Positions 12,842 through 49,743 of a DNA stretch of 64,000 nt are shown one piece after another. Origin of the DNA: Fistulifera solaris (Eukaryota); NCBI GenBank assembly GCA_030295235.1, contig AP026162.1, positions 682,001 to 746,000 of the forward strand. The letters are read 5' to 3'. Both the position numbers and the translations under genes were made by a program. The notes beneath the pieces are model-generated. The model was not told the origin of the DNA. It saw only the letters and a program-made list of their open reading frames with translations, and did not search any database. Position 1 is the stretch's first letter; each line of letters opens with the position of its first letter.

Positions 12842-13815
12842 ATGTTTGTGTCTACTGTCAACGCTGTTTTTACTCTCCTCGCGTGTGCCTCCATGGGTAT
12901 GGCTTTTACGCCAAAGCCGATGCTGCAACGGACCCACGTCAGTACAACATCCCTCGAGATCGGGGGCTTGTTTCAAAGTTTCTTCGGAAAACAGATGCCG
13001 AAATTACGGACACTGTATTTTTTGACGTCAGTATTGGTGGGCAGCCGGCGGGTCGTATCGAAATGGGACTCTACGGCAACGTTGTGCCCAAGACGACAGA
13101 GAACTTCAAGCAACTTTGCAGCGGCAAGCCAGGATTTGGCTACGAGGGCTCTATCTTTCATCGTATTATCCCGGGTACGAGCCTATGAAACACAGTATCG
13201 TTGGAAGAAGCTATGATAACTCACACAACTTTTCGTTGCTTTTAGGTTTCATGTGCCAGTAAGGAACATTTTGTTGGTTCATACGGTTTCGATCCGCGTC
13301 AACTCACACACCTTGTTAATTGCATCTTATTCTCATCGCTTACTAAAATTTTTAGAGGGTAGGTCGACTGTGTAACCATTTTCGCTTTTGATAGCTGTCT
13401 GACGAAAACTCCCCGCAGAGGCGACTTCACGAACTTCAACGGAACGGGTGGTAAATCGATTTACGGAAAAACATTCGCTGACGAGAACTTCGATATTGCT
13501 CACGGAGGACCCGGTACTTTAAGTATGGCGAATGCCGGACCCAACACAAATGGAAGTCAGTTCTTCATCACGACAGGTAAGTTTAACCTTTTAGTCTAGT
13601 CCAACGACTCGGGGAAAGTCTTCTCGTCGACTCTGTACTCAGATTGAATGGCTGCTTTCCTTCATCCAGGCGCTACACCATGGTTGAACGGCAAGCATAC
13701 AGTTTTCGGAAAAGTCACAAAAGGCATGGAGATTGTTCGAAAGATCGAGGCCAAAGGCTCTGAACTCGGCAGACCGTCAGCTGAAGTCAAGATTACAAAA
13801 AGTGGTGCTCTGTAA
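12842..13815 (+). CDS. Plastid-targeted cyclophilin PPIase (5 exons, including 13-nt and 3-nt microexons)
   Basis: Signal peptide ending GMA|F. Exons ..13174, 13246-13258, 13356-13358, 13419-13576 and 13670-13815 splice to [28 protein letters not shown]...[33 protein letters not shown]. Homopolymer frameshift near 12990. Confidence 0.95.
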
Positions 13816-37269: not shown

Positions 37270-39058
37270 TCACGTTGATTTTCGAGCAGGGAGTGTGGAC
37301 AAGAGACGAAGTAGAGACAGCCCTGATAACGAAATGATACAGCTCGATAGAAATCCATCGGGAAGCCAAAAGGCAAGAATCATTTGGAAAGACCATCCAA
37401 GCCATCCGACGGGCGATAGGAGAAAACCTGCACGAAGCATGGATAAGAAATATGCGAGAACAAGTCTTGATGATTTATCCAGAAGCATGACCATCAAATT
37501 CGGTTCTCTGAATCCCTCTAGAATCAGTGCGAGAGGGAGATAACAACGAAAGGCATTCAGAATAAGGATGGAAGCTTCATCTGAGACTCGACTGGAATTT
37601 GTCCAGGACGGCTGGCTGGGAAAGCGACAGAGAAAATAATAGAGGCACATCGTGGAAATGACATGGGGTAAGAAGTGAGGAAGGCTGAAAAGCGCCATCA
37701 TTCTGTCGCAAATCATCGGAAGTGTGTAAAGGAGTAGATAGCATGCCAGAGTGTCGTCGTTGAGAGATACTTCCCAGCTAGCGTAAATGAGAACGTTCCT
37801 TCCCCCAACTGCGATTAACTGGGCCAAATTCCACAGGAAGAGTGTAACGTAGTTTAGAAACACCATCAGTTTGTTCAGCGATGGAGCGAGAAGAGTGATA
37901 ATTTCGTCCTTCTTGCTTTGAGCGTTTGTCTTCATCGAATTTGAGGGCTCGGAAAAGATACAGTTGTCGTATCTTGCACCTTTTGTCAATCTGAACTTGT
38001 TCTTTGTCGAGAGATGATGCGTGATGGGCATCAAAGACTGGAAGAGACAAGTCTACTGTATTACTTTCCGTCGCAGCTTTCCTACTTGGTTCCGATGTAG
38101 TCGAGATGTCGACATCGTGCGGTACATGGACTAGAGACTTGCTTGGCGACTCATCACTTATCTCGTGCGTGTCATCGTCTGAATCAAATAGCAGATTAGG
38201 AAGCATGGAATTGGGACGGGGTTGTGTCGCCAGAATCTTTTCATTAGAACTCGGTTGCGCCCCAGCGCGCCCGACAGAGCCCCGGTCTACGTCGTTCCAT
38301 TCCGTCATAGGCTGCGCCGGTTTATCAACATGTCTTGATACTTTCTTTGTCCGCACTTTTGGAAATGTAAATGTAGATTGGTTGGCGCGGTTTGCTAGTG
38401 GACTTGATGATCTCGCCCGTGGTACTGGTTTTCCTGTTGTATACGACTTTCCACCGTCTTCCATAGTTAGCGTATGACCTGGATGTCTTTGCTGTTTGCG
38501 CTCTGGTGTATCGAATGTAAAAGATGGAGAAGAGCGAATGACATCCGCAAACGAAATAGATCGGCTTGTTTTGACTTGCCAAACCGAACTGGCAGCGTTT
38601 CCAGTTACAGTATCCTCGGTTAAAGGAAATCGAGTATTTCCCGACCCTTCGTGCTCTGAAGTAGAACGGAGGAATTCAGGGGGATGAACTAATGTATCAG
38701 CAGGGAGTGCGTTCGCACTGAGGGAACCTCTCAATGGATAGTTTTGTTGTCTTGGTGAAGTACTATCAGATTGTAGCGTTTCAAGCAAACGGCTTTGTAA
38801 ATGTGGAGCGTGATCGATTATCCAGTGAGCTTCGGTATCGGCTTGCGTTGTATGTAAAGTATTCCATGGATTTAGAGATACAGGAGAAGCGACAGAATGA
38901 AGTGAAAATGTATGAGCATCTTCAGGGGATACACTGCTTTTGAATCCTACATCGACATCATCTTCTGGATCAAGAATACCTCCGGGAAGAAAAAACGCGT
39001 CGATAAGGGCTGCATCATCCTCCCCTTCGTCATCGCTTGTGCCGAGTTGGTTTGCCAT
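37270..39058 (-). CDS. Unknown protein with disordered N-terminus and multi-TM C-terminus
   Basis: Two overlapping long ORFs (426 and 254 aa) joined by a probable single-base frameshift near 38000. Confidence 0.55.
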
Positions 39059-39540
39059 CTTTTGCTTATCGGCCGTCGCTTCGTCCCCCTATTTCACGTC
39101 GAACAAAATACTCTTGGGATGAGGTAACACTCACGATTGTTTCAAAGCTATAGACACCCTCGGCTTTTCATAGTATATTGTTCATTTGTTATTCATTTCG
39201 TCCCCGTCATCATCGATACATTACTGCATAATAGTGATTTAGCTTATCTTCGCAATCGCAATAATCCGCCGCTCTCATCTCTCATTCATATCTTGGAAAA
39301 TTGATCACGTCGTAGCACCACTAAAATGTACGTAAAACTACACCTTAGCCAATAGATGCTTCTCGTCCACGTTTTGATATTAAATTAGCTTAGTACCAGT
39401 CTCATTTGAACGGTCCTTGACGTAAGAGCATGCGATAGGTGCAAGTTTTGTGCGCCACCCATTCTTTTTTCGTTCGTTGGCCTCTTGGGTCTTGGTGTCA
39501 TTCATACTCTCCAGGTCTTCCAACTTCTTATCATTGCATC

Positions 39541-45540: not shown

Positions 45541-45720
45541 GTTCGTGCGTGCATGTGAACGACCCGCCTATTTTTAGAAAGCAATCTCGTCCGCGTTGAA
45601 TTCCTTTTGCCCTACAACCTTCATCGACTTGCAAAAGGCAGTCGTGTTGCTGGTGATATTCATGATTTAACATTACTTCTTGCTTCTTGATGGTAGACGG
45701 TAACGGAAATTAGAATCAAT

Positions 45721-47565
45721 ATGGGAAAAGAAGAGAAAGAGTTGTATAGTAATAATTCTCAGAAACGCCGTGATGAGGATGACGACCATAAGGATCGAAA
45801 AAAGCGACGAAAGTCGCGCGCTCGTGATGATAGTTCGGAGGAAGAAAGAAAGCCACGATCCAAGCATAAAAAGAAGAGATCACGAGAAGAAAGAAAAAAG
45901 TCGAAAATCAAAGAAACGGAAAAAGGATTATAGCTCTTCCAGCGATTCATCTTCTGATAGCTCTGATGAATCATCATCAAGTGGTAGAGGCAAGAGTGCA
46001 CGACCGAAAAAGGTTGTGAACGATCGACTTTTGGCCAAATTGCAAGCCAGGGGAGAGACGTTGGAAGAGAGAAATGCACGCCGTGCGGAAAAGCGAGCGG
46101 CTTTGATCAGTCAAAAATTTGGGTACACCGTAGACAACAATCCGTTCAACGATCCTAATCTGCACGAAAAGTTTACATGGAGAAAAAGGAAGCACACAAT
46201 GATAGTGAACAGGCTCCGAAAAAGAAAAGACGACACGTTTTTTGAGATCGAAAAAGTCAGGCAGCGAAGAACTGAGCGAGATCTGCAGCGAGAGGAAATG
46301 GAACGAATTAGAGCGGAAGAGAGCAGAATGAGAGAACTTGAGAACTACGACGAGTGGGCAAAGAAGGAGGAAGAGTTTCATTTACAGCAGCAGCGACAGC
46401 GTTCTGCTATCAGACTTGTTGAAGGCCGTGAAAAACCTGTAGATGTGCTGGCGAAAAACCTCCTCTTGTTCGGTTTATCTGACGAAGACAAAAGAATCGC
46501 GCCTCTATCAAATATCAGGAAAAGTATAATGCAATGGAGGCTATGAAAACTTTGGAAGTAGAACTTGAAGAACCATACGCGCTGCTAAAAATGATGAAGC
46601 TTGACGAACTCGAGGAGCTTCGCTTGGATATAGAGTCCTTTCGACAGCTAGAGCGACAAGCCCGTGTCTCAGATTTCGAGGTGTCTGGAAGCGATTTCGT
46701 CCTCCGTTATTGGGACGCACTTGCCATCGTAGTAGATGACGAAATAAAACTGCTGAAAAGTGGCGGTGAAAATGGAAGTCATGCGAAAATGGTAGGAGAT
46801 GTCCAGAAAATCTTCTTTGGTCAGTCGAATGCAGATCTCAAGAAGATGAAGACCGAGGTCGAGAACAGACTTAGTTCGAGTGTAAAGGCTGGCTCTGACC
46901 GTAATTATTGGCTTTCGGTTGCAGAGCAGCTTGATGTATTTCTTTGCAAAAGCTTTTTATCGGAAGAGCACTCTAAGATGCTGGTGCGACAGCTTGAGCG
47001 ACTGGAAAAGCGTCGAGAAGAACTTGCTCGAGTTTGCGATACTGGAGCCAGTGGAGGAGAAGAACAGCCTGAAGAAAGAGAAATTGTGGTGGCCGAAGAG
47101 TCTTTAGATCCATTTCAATTTCCACACGGCGATCTTGAGGAGGAACTCGGTCTTTCGGATGAATTTGATTTAGCGGGCAAATCTTATAGCTGGCAGGACA
47201 AGTATCGTCCTCGTAAGCCTCGCTACTTTAACCGAGTCAAAACCGGTTATGATTGGAATAAGTATAACCAGACTCACTACGATAAAGACAATCCGCCTCC
47301 AAAGATCGTTCAAGGCTACAAGTTCAATATCTTTTATACTGATCTAATCGACCCGACAAAGACTCCGACATTCACATTGGAACCTGCTGATTCGAAGGAG
47401 TTTTGCATAATTCGGTTCAAGGCAGGCGCTCCATATGAGGATATTGCTTTCAAAATCATCAACAGAGAGTGGAACAAGTCCCGAAAAAGAGGGTTTAAGT
47501 CGTCGTTCGAGCGGGGAGTACTATCCTTGTATTTCAACTTCACCACGCACTGGTATAGAAGATAA
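45721..47565 (+). CDS. CACTIN: Cactin (spliceosomal)
   Basis: GYTVDNNPFNDPNL, EEEFHLQQ...IRLVEGREKPVD, C-terminal KYRPRKPRYFNRVKTGYDWNKYNQTHYD...LYFNF...YRR. Frameshifts present. Confidence 0.95.
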
Positions 47566-47800: not shown

Positions 47801-49743
47801 TTACTGAGCCCATGTTGCTTGAAATGAATCCCATGTCTCGTCGGGCGGGTCCACAATCCTAATTTCATCAGCATTTTCCAGTTCCACGTGATAATTGACC
47901 AAGGGAGCTAGCTTCTTTACCGATTTCTGCGTCATCAGTAGAGGAAGAAGGTCAGCAACAGAACCCGCTTCGAAATTCGGCGCTGGGCATAGCACTTACC
48001 GGTACTTCATCGATGGCAGCAAGTAAAAGCTCTTCGGGTACAATCCGACCTGTAGAATGCGCTCTTTTCTATGGTGTTGATGTTAGTTGCGGCAACTTAA
48101 CACTGAAGGCAAGCTCAGGTGTTGACTTACAGAAGCCCTAGCGAGGACCATCTCTCTGGGAGCCGATACATGTATGATTGCAAGTCTAACGTGAGGATAC
48201 GTGCCTCTCAGTTTTTCAAAGTATTCCTCATACCAAGGAGCATCCCTCAGGCTTCCATCAACCAACACGTTCTTTCCTTCTTGTAGCGCAGCCAGGGTCA
48301 GAATTTCGCTTATAAGTCCGGCTTCTTTCCTGAGTTTTGAAGAAACATCAGAACGCATTGCGACGTTGAATTGTATCATGTACAGCGGGGTCCACGCCTT
48401 ACCTAGTAAGAGTGCCAGCATCTTCGGGACTTTGTTGGATGTATAGATGAAACTCCGGTAGATACCGTCGCAACTCGTCCGGATCCACACGGACGAAAGC
48501 AAGAAGGGGGAACAGACCTCTGTTGACCAAGTGTCGCATGGTGTAACTTTTCCCCGATCCCATTGCACCAGCGGTAAAAACGACCCACGGCTCTGTCGGT
48601 GTTGTGCATTTGTCGCCATGCTTGTCCGTAAAATATGTTGCGTCAAGAAACTCGCTAATGATTGCGTCTTGGAGCATCTGCCTTTCGAAAGTATAGTTTC
48701 GATGATAGGAATAATCCAATGTCGCCCGAATGTGGGCGAAGCGGCCATAAAACAATCGGTCATCCGATTGATGATTTTCTTCGGAGGAACGAAGAACGGA
48801 AAATAGTCGGTGCCGCTTGGGACAAACAGTGTTGTCTCCCGACGCAAGACGTTGAATATTCGGCACTTCGACAGACCGCTGCTGCCCAAAGATTGTAGCA
48901 AATTGTTGTCTAATCTCTTCGGTCGGCTGTAACCCGTCAGAATCTTTAATTATAGAGCAATAGTAATCCACGTCGGACTTTGATTGCTCGACAAAATCCG
49001 TCGGCCCTTTTCGTACATCCGATGTTCGTTCCAAGTCGGTCAAAGTGCCATCTGCGACTATTGCTAAACTTGGTATAACATGAATAAGTCCAACTTTCAA
49101 GGAGAGCGAAGACGTCCGTAGGCAATGAATCTTCTGTTTGCATGATGAGATGTCAATGCGTCTGGTCATGAAAAGTACATTTCGTCCCGATTGCAAGGCT
49201 GCTAGCATCAGAGTCTCTGCAATGTAGTCGCATTCCTTTTCAGTCCGAGTGTCCGCCAAGTCGGGAGACTCTCGGAGAAAAAAAGGCATATTCCGGAAGA
49301 TATTGTCGAATCTCATCCGTGTCGATAGTGACCATCGATGGAAACGGAAGGTGGTTCTTTCTTAACAGCTCTGCCATCGAGGACATACTCTCTGTTCCAG
49401 GAGCACAAACAACTAGAATAGCCCAAGGTTCGCATTGTAATTCAGCTGGAGAGGCGCTGTTCAGGATATCATCCATGATCGAGTCATGGAGCCACTGTCG
49501 CTGTTTCTGATAATGCGAATGATACGAGTAGTCCATCTTCTCCCGAATATGACCATAGGCACCGTAAAAACGTTTCTCATCATCTCGACTCCGAAAATGC
49601 TCTTCGGTCGAATCTTCCAAGCCAAACGGTTTGAATGAACACGAAGATGACAACGCGGGCATTCGTTCGGATGGCGCCGTCTCGTCGGGGGAACTGTTGA
49701 TTGCTGTAATGTCGTCAGCATTTATTACATGTTCAGGTAACAT
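47801..49743 (-). CDS. Zeta-toxin-like P-loop kinase with tandem duplicated domain
   Basis: Second domain FTAGAMGSGKS, VDPDELRRYLPE, KEAGLISE, VLVDGSL. First domain is homologous but its P-loop is degenerate. Two introns and a frameshift near 49240. Confidence 0.8.

Follow-up and report, generated by a model that had tools for sequence, protein, structure and literature searches.

The cyclophilin locus and its exon-intron layout

The plus strand of the window, by which we mean the whole 64-kb stretch of DNA analyzed here, carries a gene whose product is, judged by profile matches, a cyclophilin-type prolyl isomerase with an N-terminal presequence and predicted enzymatic activity. The gene is built of five exons, counting one of 13 nt and one of 3 nt (Table 1). 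Its neighbors in the window are ordinary eukaryotic genes, encoding a class I tRNA synthetase and proteins with CBS, RING, aminotransferase IV, G-patch, HSF, cactin and Josephin/UBX domains; no second cyclophilin was found in the 64-kb window.

Table 1. Exons and introns of the cyclophilin gene in window coordinates (a slash marks a splice junction)
Feature	Positions	Strand	Length	Letters at or beside the splice sites	Content
Exon 1	12842-13174	+		...ATC CCG G at 13174 (phase 1, CCG G/), then GTACGA	ATG at 12842; N-terminal presequence and first third of the cyclophilin domain
Intron 1	13175-13245	+	71 nt	GTACGA...TTTTAG	
Exon 2	13246-13258	+	13 nt	TTTTAG upstream, GTAAGG downstream	GTTTCATGTGCCA; finishes G codon, then F M C, then bases 1-2 of Q codon
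Intron 2	13259-13355	+	97 nt	GTAAGG...TTACTAAAATTTTTAG	
3-nt exon	13356-13358	+	3 nt	AAATTTTTAG upstream, GTAGGT downstream	AGG; base 3 of Q codon and bases 1-2 of the first Gly codon of QGGDF
Intron 3	13359-13418	+	60 nt	GTAGGT...CTGACGAAAACTCCCCGCAG	
Exon 4	13419-13576	+	158 nt	CCCCGCAG upstream; CCGCAG/AGGCGAC	last base of first Gly codon, GDFTNFNG...FFITT, first base of a Gly codon
Intron 4	13577-13669	+	93 nt	GTAAGT...ATCCAG	
Exon 5	13670-13815	+			domain end; stop TAA at 13813-13815

The acceptor AG and the donor GT directly abut the three letters of the smallest exon (TTTTTAG/AGG/GTAGGT). An earlier note on this DNA had proposed this exon from a 13-nt exon, an AGG flanked by AG and GT, and the letters AGGCGAC downstream, and our re-reading of the sequence bears out all of these letters. 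Of the flanking intron lengths given there, 100 and 60 nt, the second is right and the first is wrong by three letters (Table 1). When the AGG is included, the codons read CAA GGA GGC GAC, or Q-G-G-D; when it is skipped, the frame is kept, one glycine is lost and the product remains open at 166 residues. A NAGNAG-type or shifted splice site was ruled out as the source of the three extra letters, as the letters beside 13258 and 13419 give other strings.

Counted over both strands, the 64-kb window contains the arrangement AG-RGG-GT (AGRGGGT) 7 times, where shuffles give an expectation of 7.6. This frequency, about 5.5e-5 per position, corresponds to about 0.008 expected occurrences across the 160 nt that separate the donor of exon 2 from the acceptor of exon 4. 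The predicted RNA fold of the segment 13240-13430 is not special, at -34.7 kcal/mol (z = +1.37), with 183 of 200 shuffles folding at least as well. Within intron 3, contigs of X1 and X4 have one extra C in the C-run at 13410, which is without coding effect and is the second homopolymer discrepancy of the window, after that of the A-run at 12988-12991 described below.

The encoded protein

Each of the three large exons matches the PF00160 profile, for which the cut-off is 21.7 bits: exon 1 (residues from 12994) at profile positions 2-47 with 40.7 bits, exon 4 at positions 55-111 with 41.9 bits, and exon 5 at positions 114-157 with 41.5 bits. The three matches are colinear, and the profile positions left uncovered between exons 1 and 4 are exactly G-F-M-C-Q-G-G. 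In having the domain match in all three large exons, the gene resembles the cyclophilin A/B/D-type isomerases (PF00160); it differs from them in a presequence of about 50 residues, in which the protein of the window and its diatom orthologues are alike. The stretches FHRIIP, FMCQ, MANAGPN and SQFF and one further 11-residue stretch are present, and the intact F-M-C/I-Q-G-G-D-F stretch is present only when the AGG is spliced in.

We take the active-site residues, in the numbering of human cyclophilin A, to be Arg55, Phe60, Gln63, Asn102, Phe113, Trp121 and His126. The alignment with solved chains covers exon 4 only: all 52 of its residues align with cyclophilin chains of the PDB (such as 1ak4_A and 7th7_A) at E ~1e-22, and the first of them pairs with residue 65 of the cyclophilin A chain 1ak4_A, which has 165 residues. 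The glycine completed by the AGG thus corresponds to Gly64 of human cyclophilin A, beside Gln63, which presumably has an active-site role.

The last residues of the presequence (12842-12990) are Ala-Phe, comparable to the ...ASAFAP found in the orthologues from Chaetoceros and Phaeodactylum. We take this ending to resemble a diatom plastid-targeting signal, and a plastid location of the cyclophilin is presumed. In the window as assembled, the frame from the ATG at 12842 fails to join the domain frame, the A-run at 12988-12991 being one A short. Contigs of X1 (27.7/27.7 depth) and of X2 (9.4/9.4) carry an extra A behind 12987, which joins both frames; the window thus has a homopolymer error, probably of the assembly, and not a broken gene.

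Frames overlap elsewhere in the window as well. The cactin gene at 45704-47565 (+) lies in two overlapping frames, with Cactin_mid positions 1-51 in one ORF and positions 54-193 plus the C-terminal domain in the next, an overlap that reflects either a very short intron or another assembly frameshift. More overlapping ORF pairs lie at 37270-39088 (-) and 48083-49361 (-). The ORF at 48402-49361 (-) has a partial match to the Pfam family Zeta_toxin (E 2.7e-9, profile positions 9-76 of 199), which in this eukaryotic context is probably a P-loop kinase-like domain.

Splice paths and homologues

All combinations of one to three GT/GC-AG introns of at least 30 nt between 13120 and 13470 were assembled as candidate splice paths. 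Of 31,247 paths, 3,080 were open and in frame, and among them the model that includes the AGG ranks first with 347.5 bits, followed by a path at 343.5 bits; skipping of the AGG scores 339.1 bits. The profile behind these scores was made from 46 full-length homologues chosen for Q-[GA]-G-D-[FI], and so favors two residues at this place by construction. Its alignment with the inclusion product is gapless over the full length (347.4 bits), and that with the skipping product needs one deletion (339.0 bits), a comparison to be read with that bias toward two residues in mind.

The form with one glycine is absent from all 242 homologues collected. Protein searches with exons 1, 4 and 5 yielded no close relative with a full-length protein model. 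The nearest matches (98%, 97% and 90% for exon 1, 94% for exon 4 and 81% for exon 5) are cut off, read through introns or come from other genera.

Two copies of the gene

Among named proteins, the nearest is FisN_1Lh305 (P0005, 116 aa), a hypothetical protein of Fistulifera solaris that is 97% identical to exon 1. Beside the version that matches the window exactly, runs X1 and X3 contain a second version of the gene that is about 93% alike. Its changes, namely R30Q, E39Q and L43M in a variant contig of X1 and an S-to-T exchange at 13121 in X3, are all residues of P0005. The accessible parts of two papers describe F. solaris as allodiploid or allopolyploid, with homoeologous gene pairs (PMC13276009, PMC5935921). 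In our reading, the window contains one copy and P0005 represents the sister copy, in F. solaris or a species very close to it. The copy-to-copy differences listed in the domain exons number 14, of which 13 are synonymous third positions and one is the S-to-T exchange. Judged by this pattern, purifying selection acts on each of the two, and this would make no sense if either failed to produce an intact domain.

The P0005 model ends in ...PGFMCQ. This end would follow from splicing of intron 1 and then reading TGC CAG TAA through the exon-2 donor, so that the sister copy, as far as its protein tells, would share at least intron 1, exon 2 and the intron-2 donor. The genomic DNA of the sister copy could contain an AGG that is joined to exon 4. 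The expectation that gene finders would miss an exon of this size is borne out by this public model of the sister gene, which stops at FMCQ.

RNA evidence for the 3-nt exon

The joint of intron 4 (GT..AG) is found in exact-match contigs of two runs (X2 record 10 and X3 record 13, the cut read three places to the right). An exact joint in letter-perfect contigs indicates that these runs are transcript-derived and that the window's own gene is expressed. At the small exons, the exact-match contigs of the window's copy stop at 13169 (X2) and 13172 (X3) and restart at 13537 and 13449, respectively, a gap that counts neither way.

The junction itself is covered by X3 record 12, a contig of 249 letters with 17 other letters in 235 aligned. 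It covers 13060-13176 and 13418-13535, with the 13 letters TTCATGTGCCAAG between these segments, and intron 1 is spliced out of it. The GT at 13175-13176 is identical to the first two letters of exon 2, and the G at 13418 to the last letter of the AGG. With the boundary letters shared in this way, the contig reads exon 1, exon 2, AGG and exon 4 with no other letter, and its translation across the joint is P-G-F-M-C-Q-G-G-D. The S-to-T exchange at 13121 marks the contig as one from the sister copy. The 15-letter inclusion string that the earlier note had proposed to seek in RNA was accordingly found, in this one sister-copy contig of one run.

The predicted junction in RNA of the sister copy, together with the first rank among all splice paths tried, supports the proposal of a genuine exon of 3 nt, and we consider it very probable that the AGG is one. 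Its inclusion is probably constitutive. Other splice paths, for example one with a 5-nt exon at 13358-13362 and an acceptor at 13420 or one with a GC donor at 13255, are open as well, at 343.5 and 340.7 bits. These paths depend on weak sites (GTCGAC, GCCAGT), alter the invariant motif and fail to give the string of the RNA contig, and we accord them a next to negligible probability.

Another reading holds that the AGG is a regulated cassette, included or skipped by condition, which would toggle between an active enzyme with two glycines and an impaired one with a single glycine; the earlier note had likewise suggested that skipping could act as an off switch. Such a cassette would be consistent with the kept frame and the open product of the skipped form, and the exon-2 donor and the exon-4 acceptor are usable as the ends of a 160-nt intron. 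Moreover, 3-nt exons that change function by one residue exist in animals, according to the accessible parts of reports on cytohesin-1 (PMC6314551) and Drosophila hth (PMC7392893). Against this reading, the sole junction-spanning contig, that of the sister copy, includes the AGG, and the one-glycine form occurs in 0 of the 242 homologues. Among the RNA-derived contigs, which drop rare forms and give no isoform ratios, none carries the skipping junction. The off switch thus gained no support, and we regard a regulated cassette as very unlikely.

The frame break at 12988-12991 and the fact that no window-type contig crosses the junction would also fit a decaying duplicate, in which the window's copy is transcribed and mis-spliced at the AGG and the sister alone makes a functional enzyme. 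Several observations speak against such decay: the missing A is present in reads of X1 and X2 and its loss is attributed to the assembly, each of the 13 third-position changes that separate the copies is synonymous, exon 2, the AGG and all splice sites are intact, and intron 4 is spliced in the exact-match contigs. We judge it extremely improbable that the window's copy is decaying.

Intron positions among relatives

To place the exon among related genes, 80 related metagenome loci were aligned with the Chaetoceros orthologue P0013. The motif is unbroken in 59 of these loci; in 36 of the 59 the whole domain lies in one piece, as in an intron-less gene or a cDNA, and the remaining 23 have introns elsewhere. 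A break between residues 100 and 126 was found in 17 of the 80 loci, and 4 are without cover of the motif. A 3-nt exon was found in none of the 80.

The position of intron 1 (phase 1, in the codon before F-M) is also interrupted in L064-66, L035/38, L055-61 and L067. The first of these, L064-L066, represent a related diatom gene from microbial-mat metagenomes (L064:680-905) that has, beside the intron at this position, an intron directly after the CAG of the glutamine. There a 14-nt exon GATTTATGTGTCAG is followed by a 31-nt exon starting GCC GGC GAT, and the motif reads Q-A-G-D-F, not Q-G-G-D-F. In L077 and L078 the junction is CAAG/GT, which corresponds to phase 1 of the first glycine codon.

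For the relatives available as protein only, intron positions were deduced from the residues of read-through ORFs. These place an intron after the glutamine in P0040, P0047, P0125 and P0128, in phase 1 of the first glycine codon in P0078 and P0100, in phase 2 of the same codon, the position of the window's intron 3, in P0036, P0041, P0123 and P0124, and in phase 1 of the aspartate codon in P0038, P0042, P0066, P0071 and P0073. In no relative examined was an intron seen where the window's intron 2 lies, in phase 2 of the glutamine codon. Counted over the diatom relatives, no fewer than five distinct intron positions thus lie within some 10 nt of the codons for QGGD, mostly deduced from read-through ORFs. 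The codons of the motif have the appearance of an intron hot spot in this group, and the 3-nt exon appears to be restricted to a narrow lineage.

An unspliced contig of 422 letters from X4, a freshwater metatranscriptome, is 97% alike to the window (13 other letters and 3 gaps) and keeps the AGG and its sites. We rejected this contig as evidence of conservation: with about 12 of 228 intronic letters changed, a given 16 letters would all stay unchanged by chance in about 40% of cases.

Likeness between introns and the origin of the 3-nt exon

The 14-mer AACTCACACAACTT of intron 1 (13218-13231, +) recurs in intron 2 at 13301-13314 with 13 of 14 letters alike, so that both introns contain the element AACTCACACA(A/C)CTT. 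Its 10-letter core AACTCACACA occurs exactly at these two intron sites and nowhere else in the 64-kb window. The shared segment extends to 23 nt (13218-13240 and 13301-13323; 19/23 alike, one gap), with a local alignment score between introns 1 and 2 that was reached by 0 of 500 shuffles; for the wider segments 13175-13300 and 13301-13418, the score was reached by 1 of 500. Other pairs of introns are no better than shuffles (introns 2 and 3, 395/500; introns 1 and 3, 163/500; introns 4 and 2, 391/500). This likeness hints that part of one intron was copied, by local duplication, in the origin of the arrangement, and does not prove the way in which the 3-nt exon arose.

In the read-through ORF of P0036 (residues ~130-167), the six residues YVPSVG occur twice, once following ...IIPG and once following ...FMCQG. 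This looks like a 15-nt exon flanked by two introns that share their first ~18 letters; P0041, a near relative, has the second of these introns only. This difference between the two proteins suggests intron copying in another diatom.

These threads could be drawn together into a more far-reaching proposal, in which intron gain at a hot spot produced the 3-nt exon recently and the allodiploid copies might differ in how far they skip the AGG, so that a presumed plastid cyclophilin would be toggled naturally by one glycine. We consider this combination unlikely.

A proposed mechanism for inclusion of the 3-nt exon

The reading we prefer is that of a diatom nuclear cyclophilin gene with a constitutive, lineage-restricted 3-nt exon between short introns that are recognized by intron definition, and taken as a whole we hold it with high confidence. 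The gene would belong to the nuclear genome of a raphid diatom, either Fistulifera solaris or a species very close to it, and in this gene three short spliceosomal introns cut the G-F-M-C-Q-G codons and would leave the 13-nt and the 3-nt exon between them. Each intron would be served by its own GT donor, CTNAY-like branch region and pyrimidine-rich AG acceptor. In intron 2, the donor GTAAGG is accompanied by CTCAC, CTTAC and TACTAA-like elements and by a T-rich tract before the AG; in intron 3, the donor is GTAGGT and a CTGAC lies about 20 nt before the CAG. Introns so short are likely to be recognized across the intron. Those of 97 and 60 nt would be removed one after the other, since U1 on AGG/GTAGGT and the 3' splice-site factors on TTTTTAG/A could not easily share an exon of 3 nt. 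Inclusion of the AGG would be needed for an active enzyme, the activity itself being predicted.

Relation to known tiny exons

In the long introns of Drosophila and vertebrates, juxtaposed AG/GT sites form recursive splice sites, or 'zero-length exons'. The diatom exon resembles them in that a 3' splice site stands nearly against a 5' splice site, which implies stepwise removal, and differs in that the introns here are short and three coding bases remain in the mRNA. We ruled out the AGG as a recursive splice site on this last point, as the three coding bases between AG and GT stay in the RNA.

Plants have coding microexons of 1-15 nt, with APC11 and VPS55 as genes that contain exons of 1 nt, as laid out in the accessible sections of PMC8831610. 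According to the same sections, these are, like the exon described here, tiny internal coding exons between ordinary introns that are mostly included and needed for an intact protein, and they too are missing from reference annotations, which leads to truncated or altered models (PMC8831610). Many of the plant microexons covered there are conserved, whereas the present exon belongs to a diatom cyclophilin, measures 3 nt and seemingly has a narrow distribution. Neither 'cyclophilin' nor 'peptidyl-prolyl' occurs in the accessible sections of PMC8831610.

Among animals, one parallel is the 3-nt microexon of cytohesin-1, which, in the accessible part of PMC6314551, yields diglycine and triglycine variants that both exist and differ in lipid binding. 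Both there and in the diatom gene, three bases contribute one glycine to a glycine run that belongs to a functional site. The two cases differ in that cytohesin-1 has two isoforms (PMC6314551), whereas here inclusion alone was seen and the shorter form would lack a residue kept in 242 of 242 homologues. Further 3-nt exons of animals are micro-Ex8 of Drosophila homothorax (PMC7392893) and a three-base exon of human MAP4K5 (PMC8632122); as far as the accessible parts of these papers go, both resemble the AGG in size and in canonical flanking splice sites, and differ from it in their long introns and regulated splicing, the diatom exon lying between introns of 97 and 60 nt. We found no paper on microexons in diatoms in the literature, and, judging by titles and the openings of abstracts, none that links microexons to cyclophilins. 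The 3-nt exon is a further case of a phenomenon known from the tiny exons of plants and animals, without a new mechanism.

Its interest is that of a clear-cut 3-nt coding exon from an organism that is neither animal nor plant, placed inside the codons of an invariant active-site motif. The exon also explains a failure of annotation, in which the public model of the sister gene was cut to 116 residues at FMCQ, and for diatom genomics it makes a case for microexon-aware annotation. Moreover, the clustered intron positions at the QGG codons form a small natural collection of cases for the study of intron gain or sliding.
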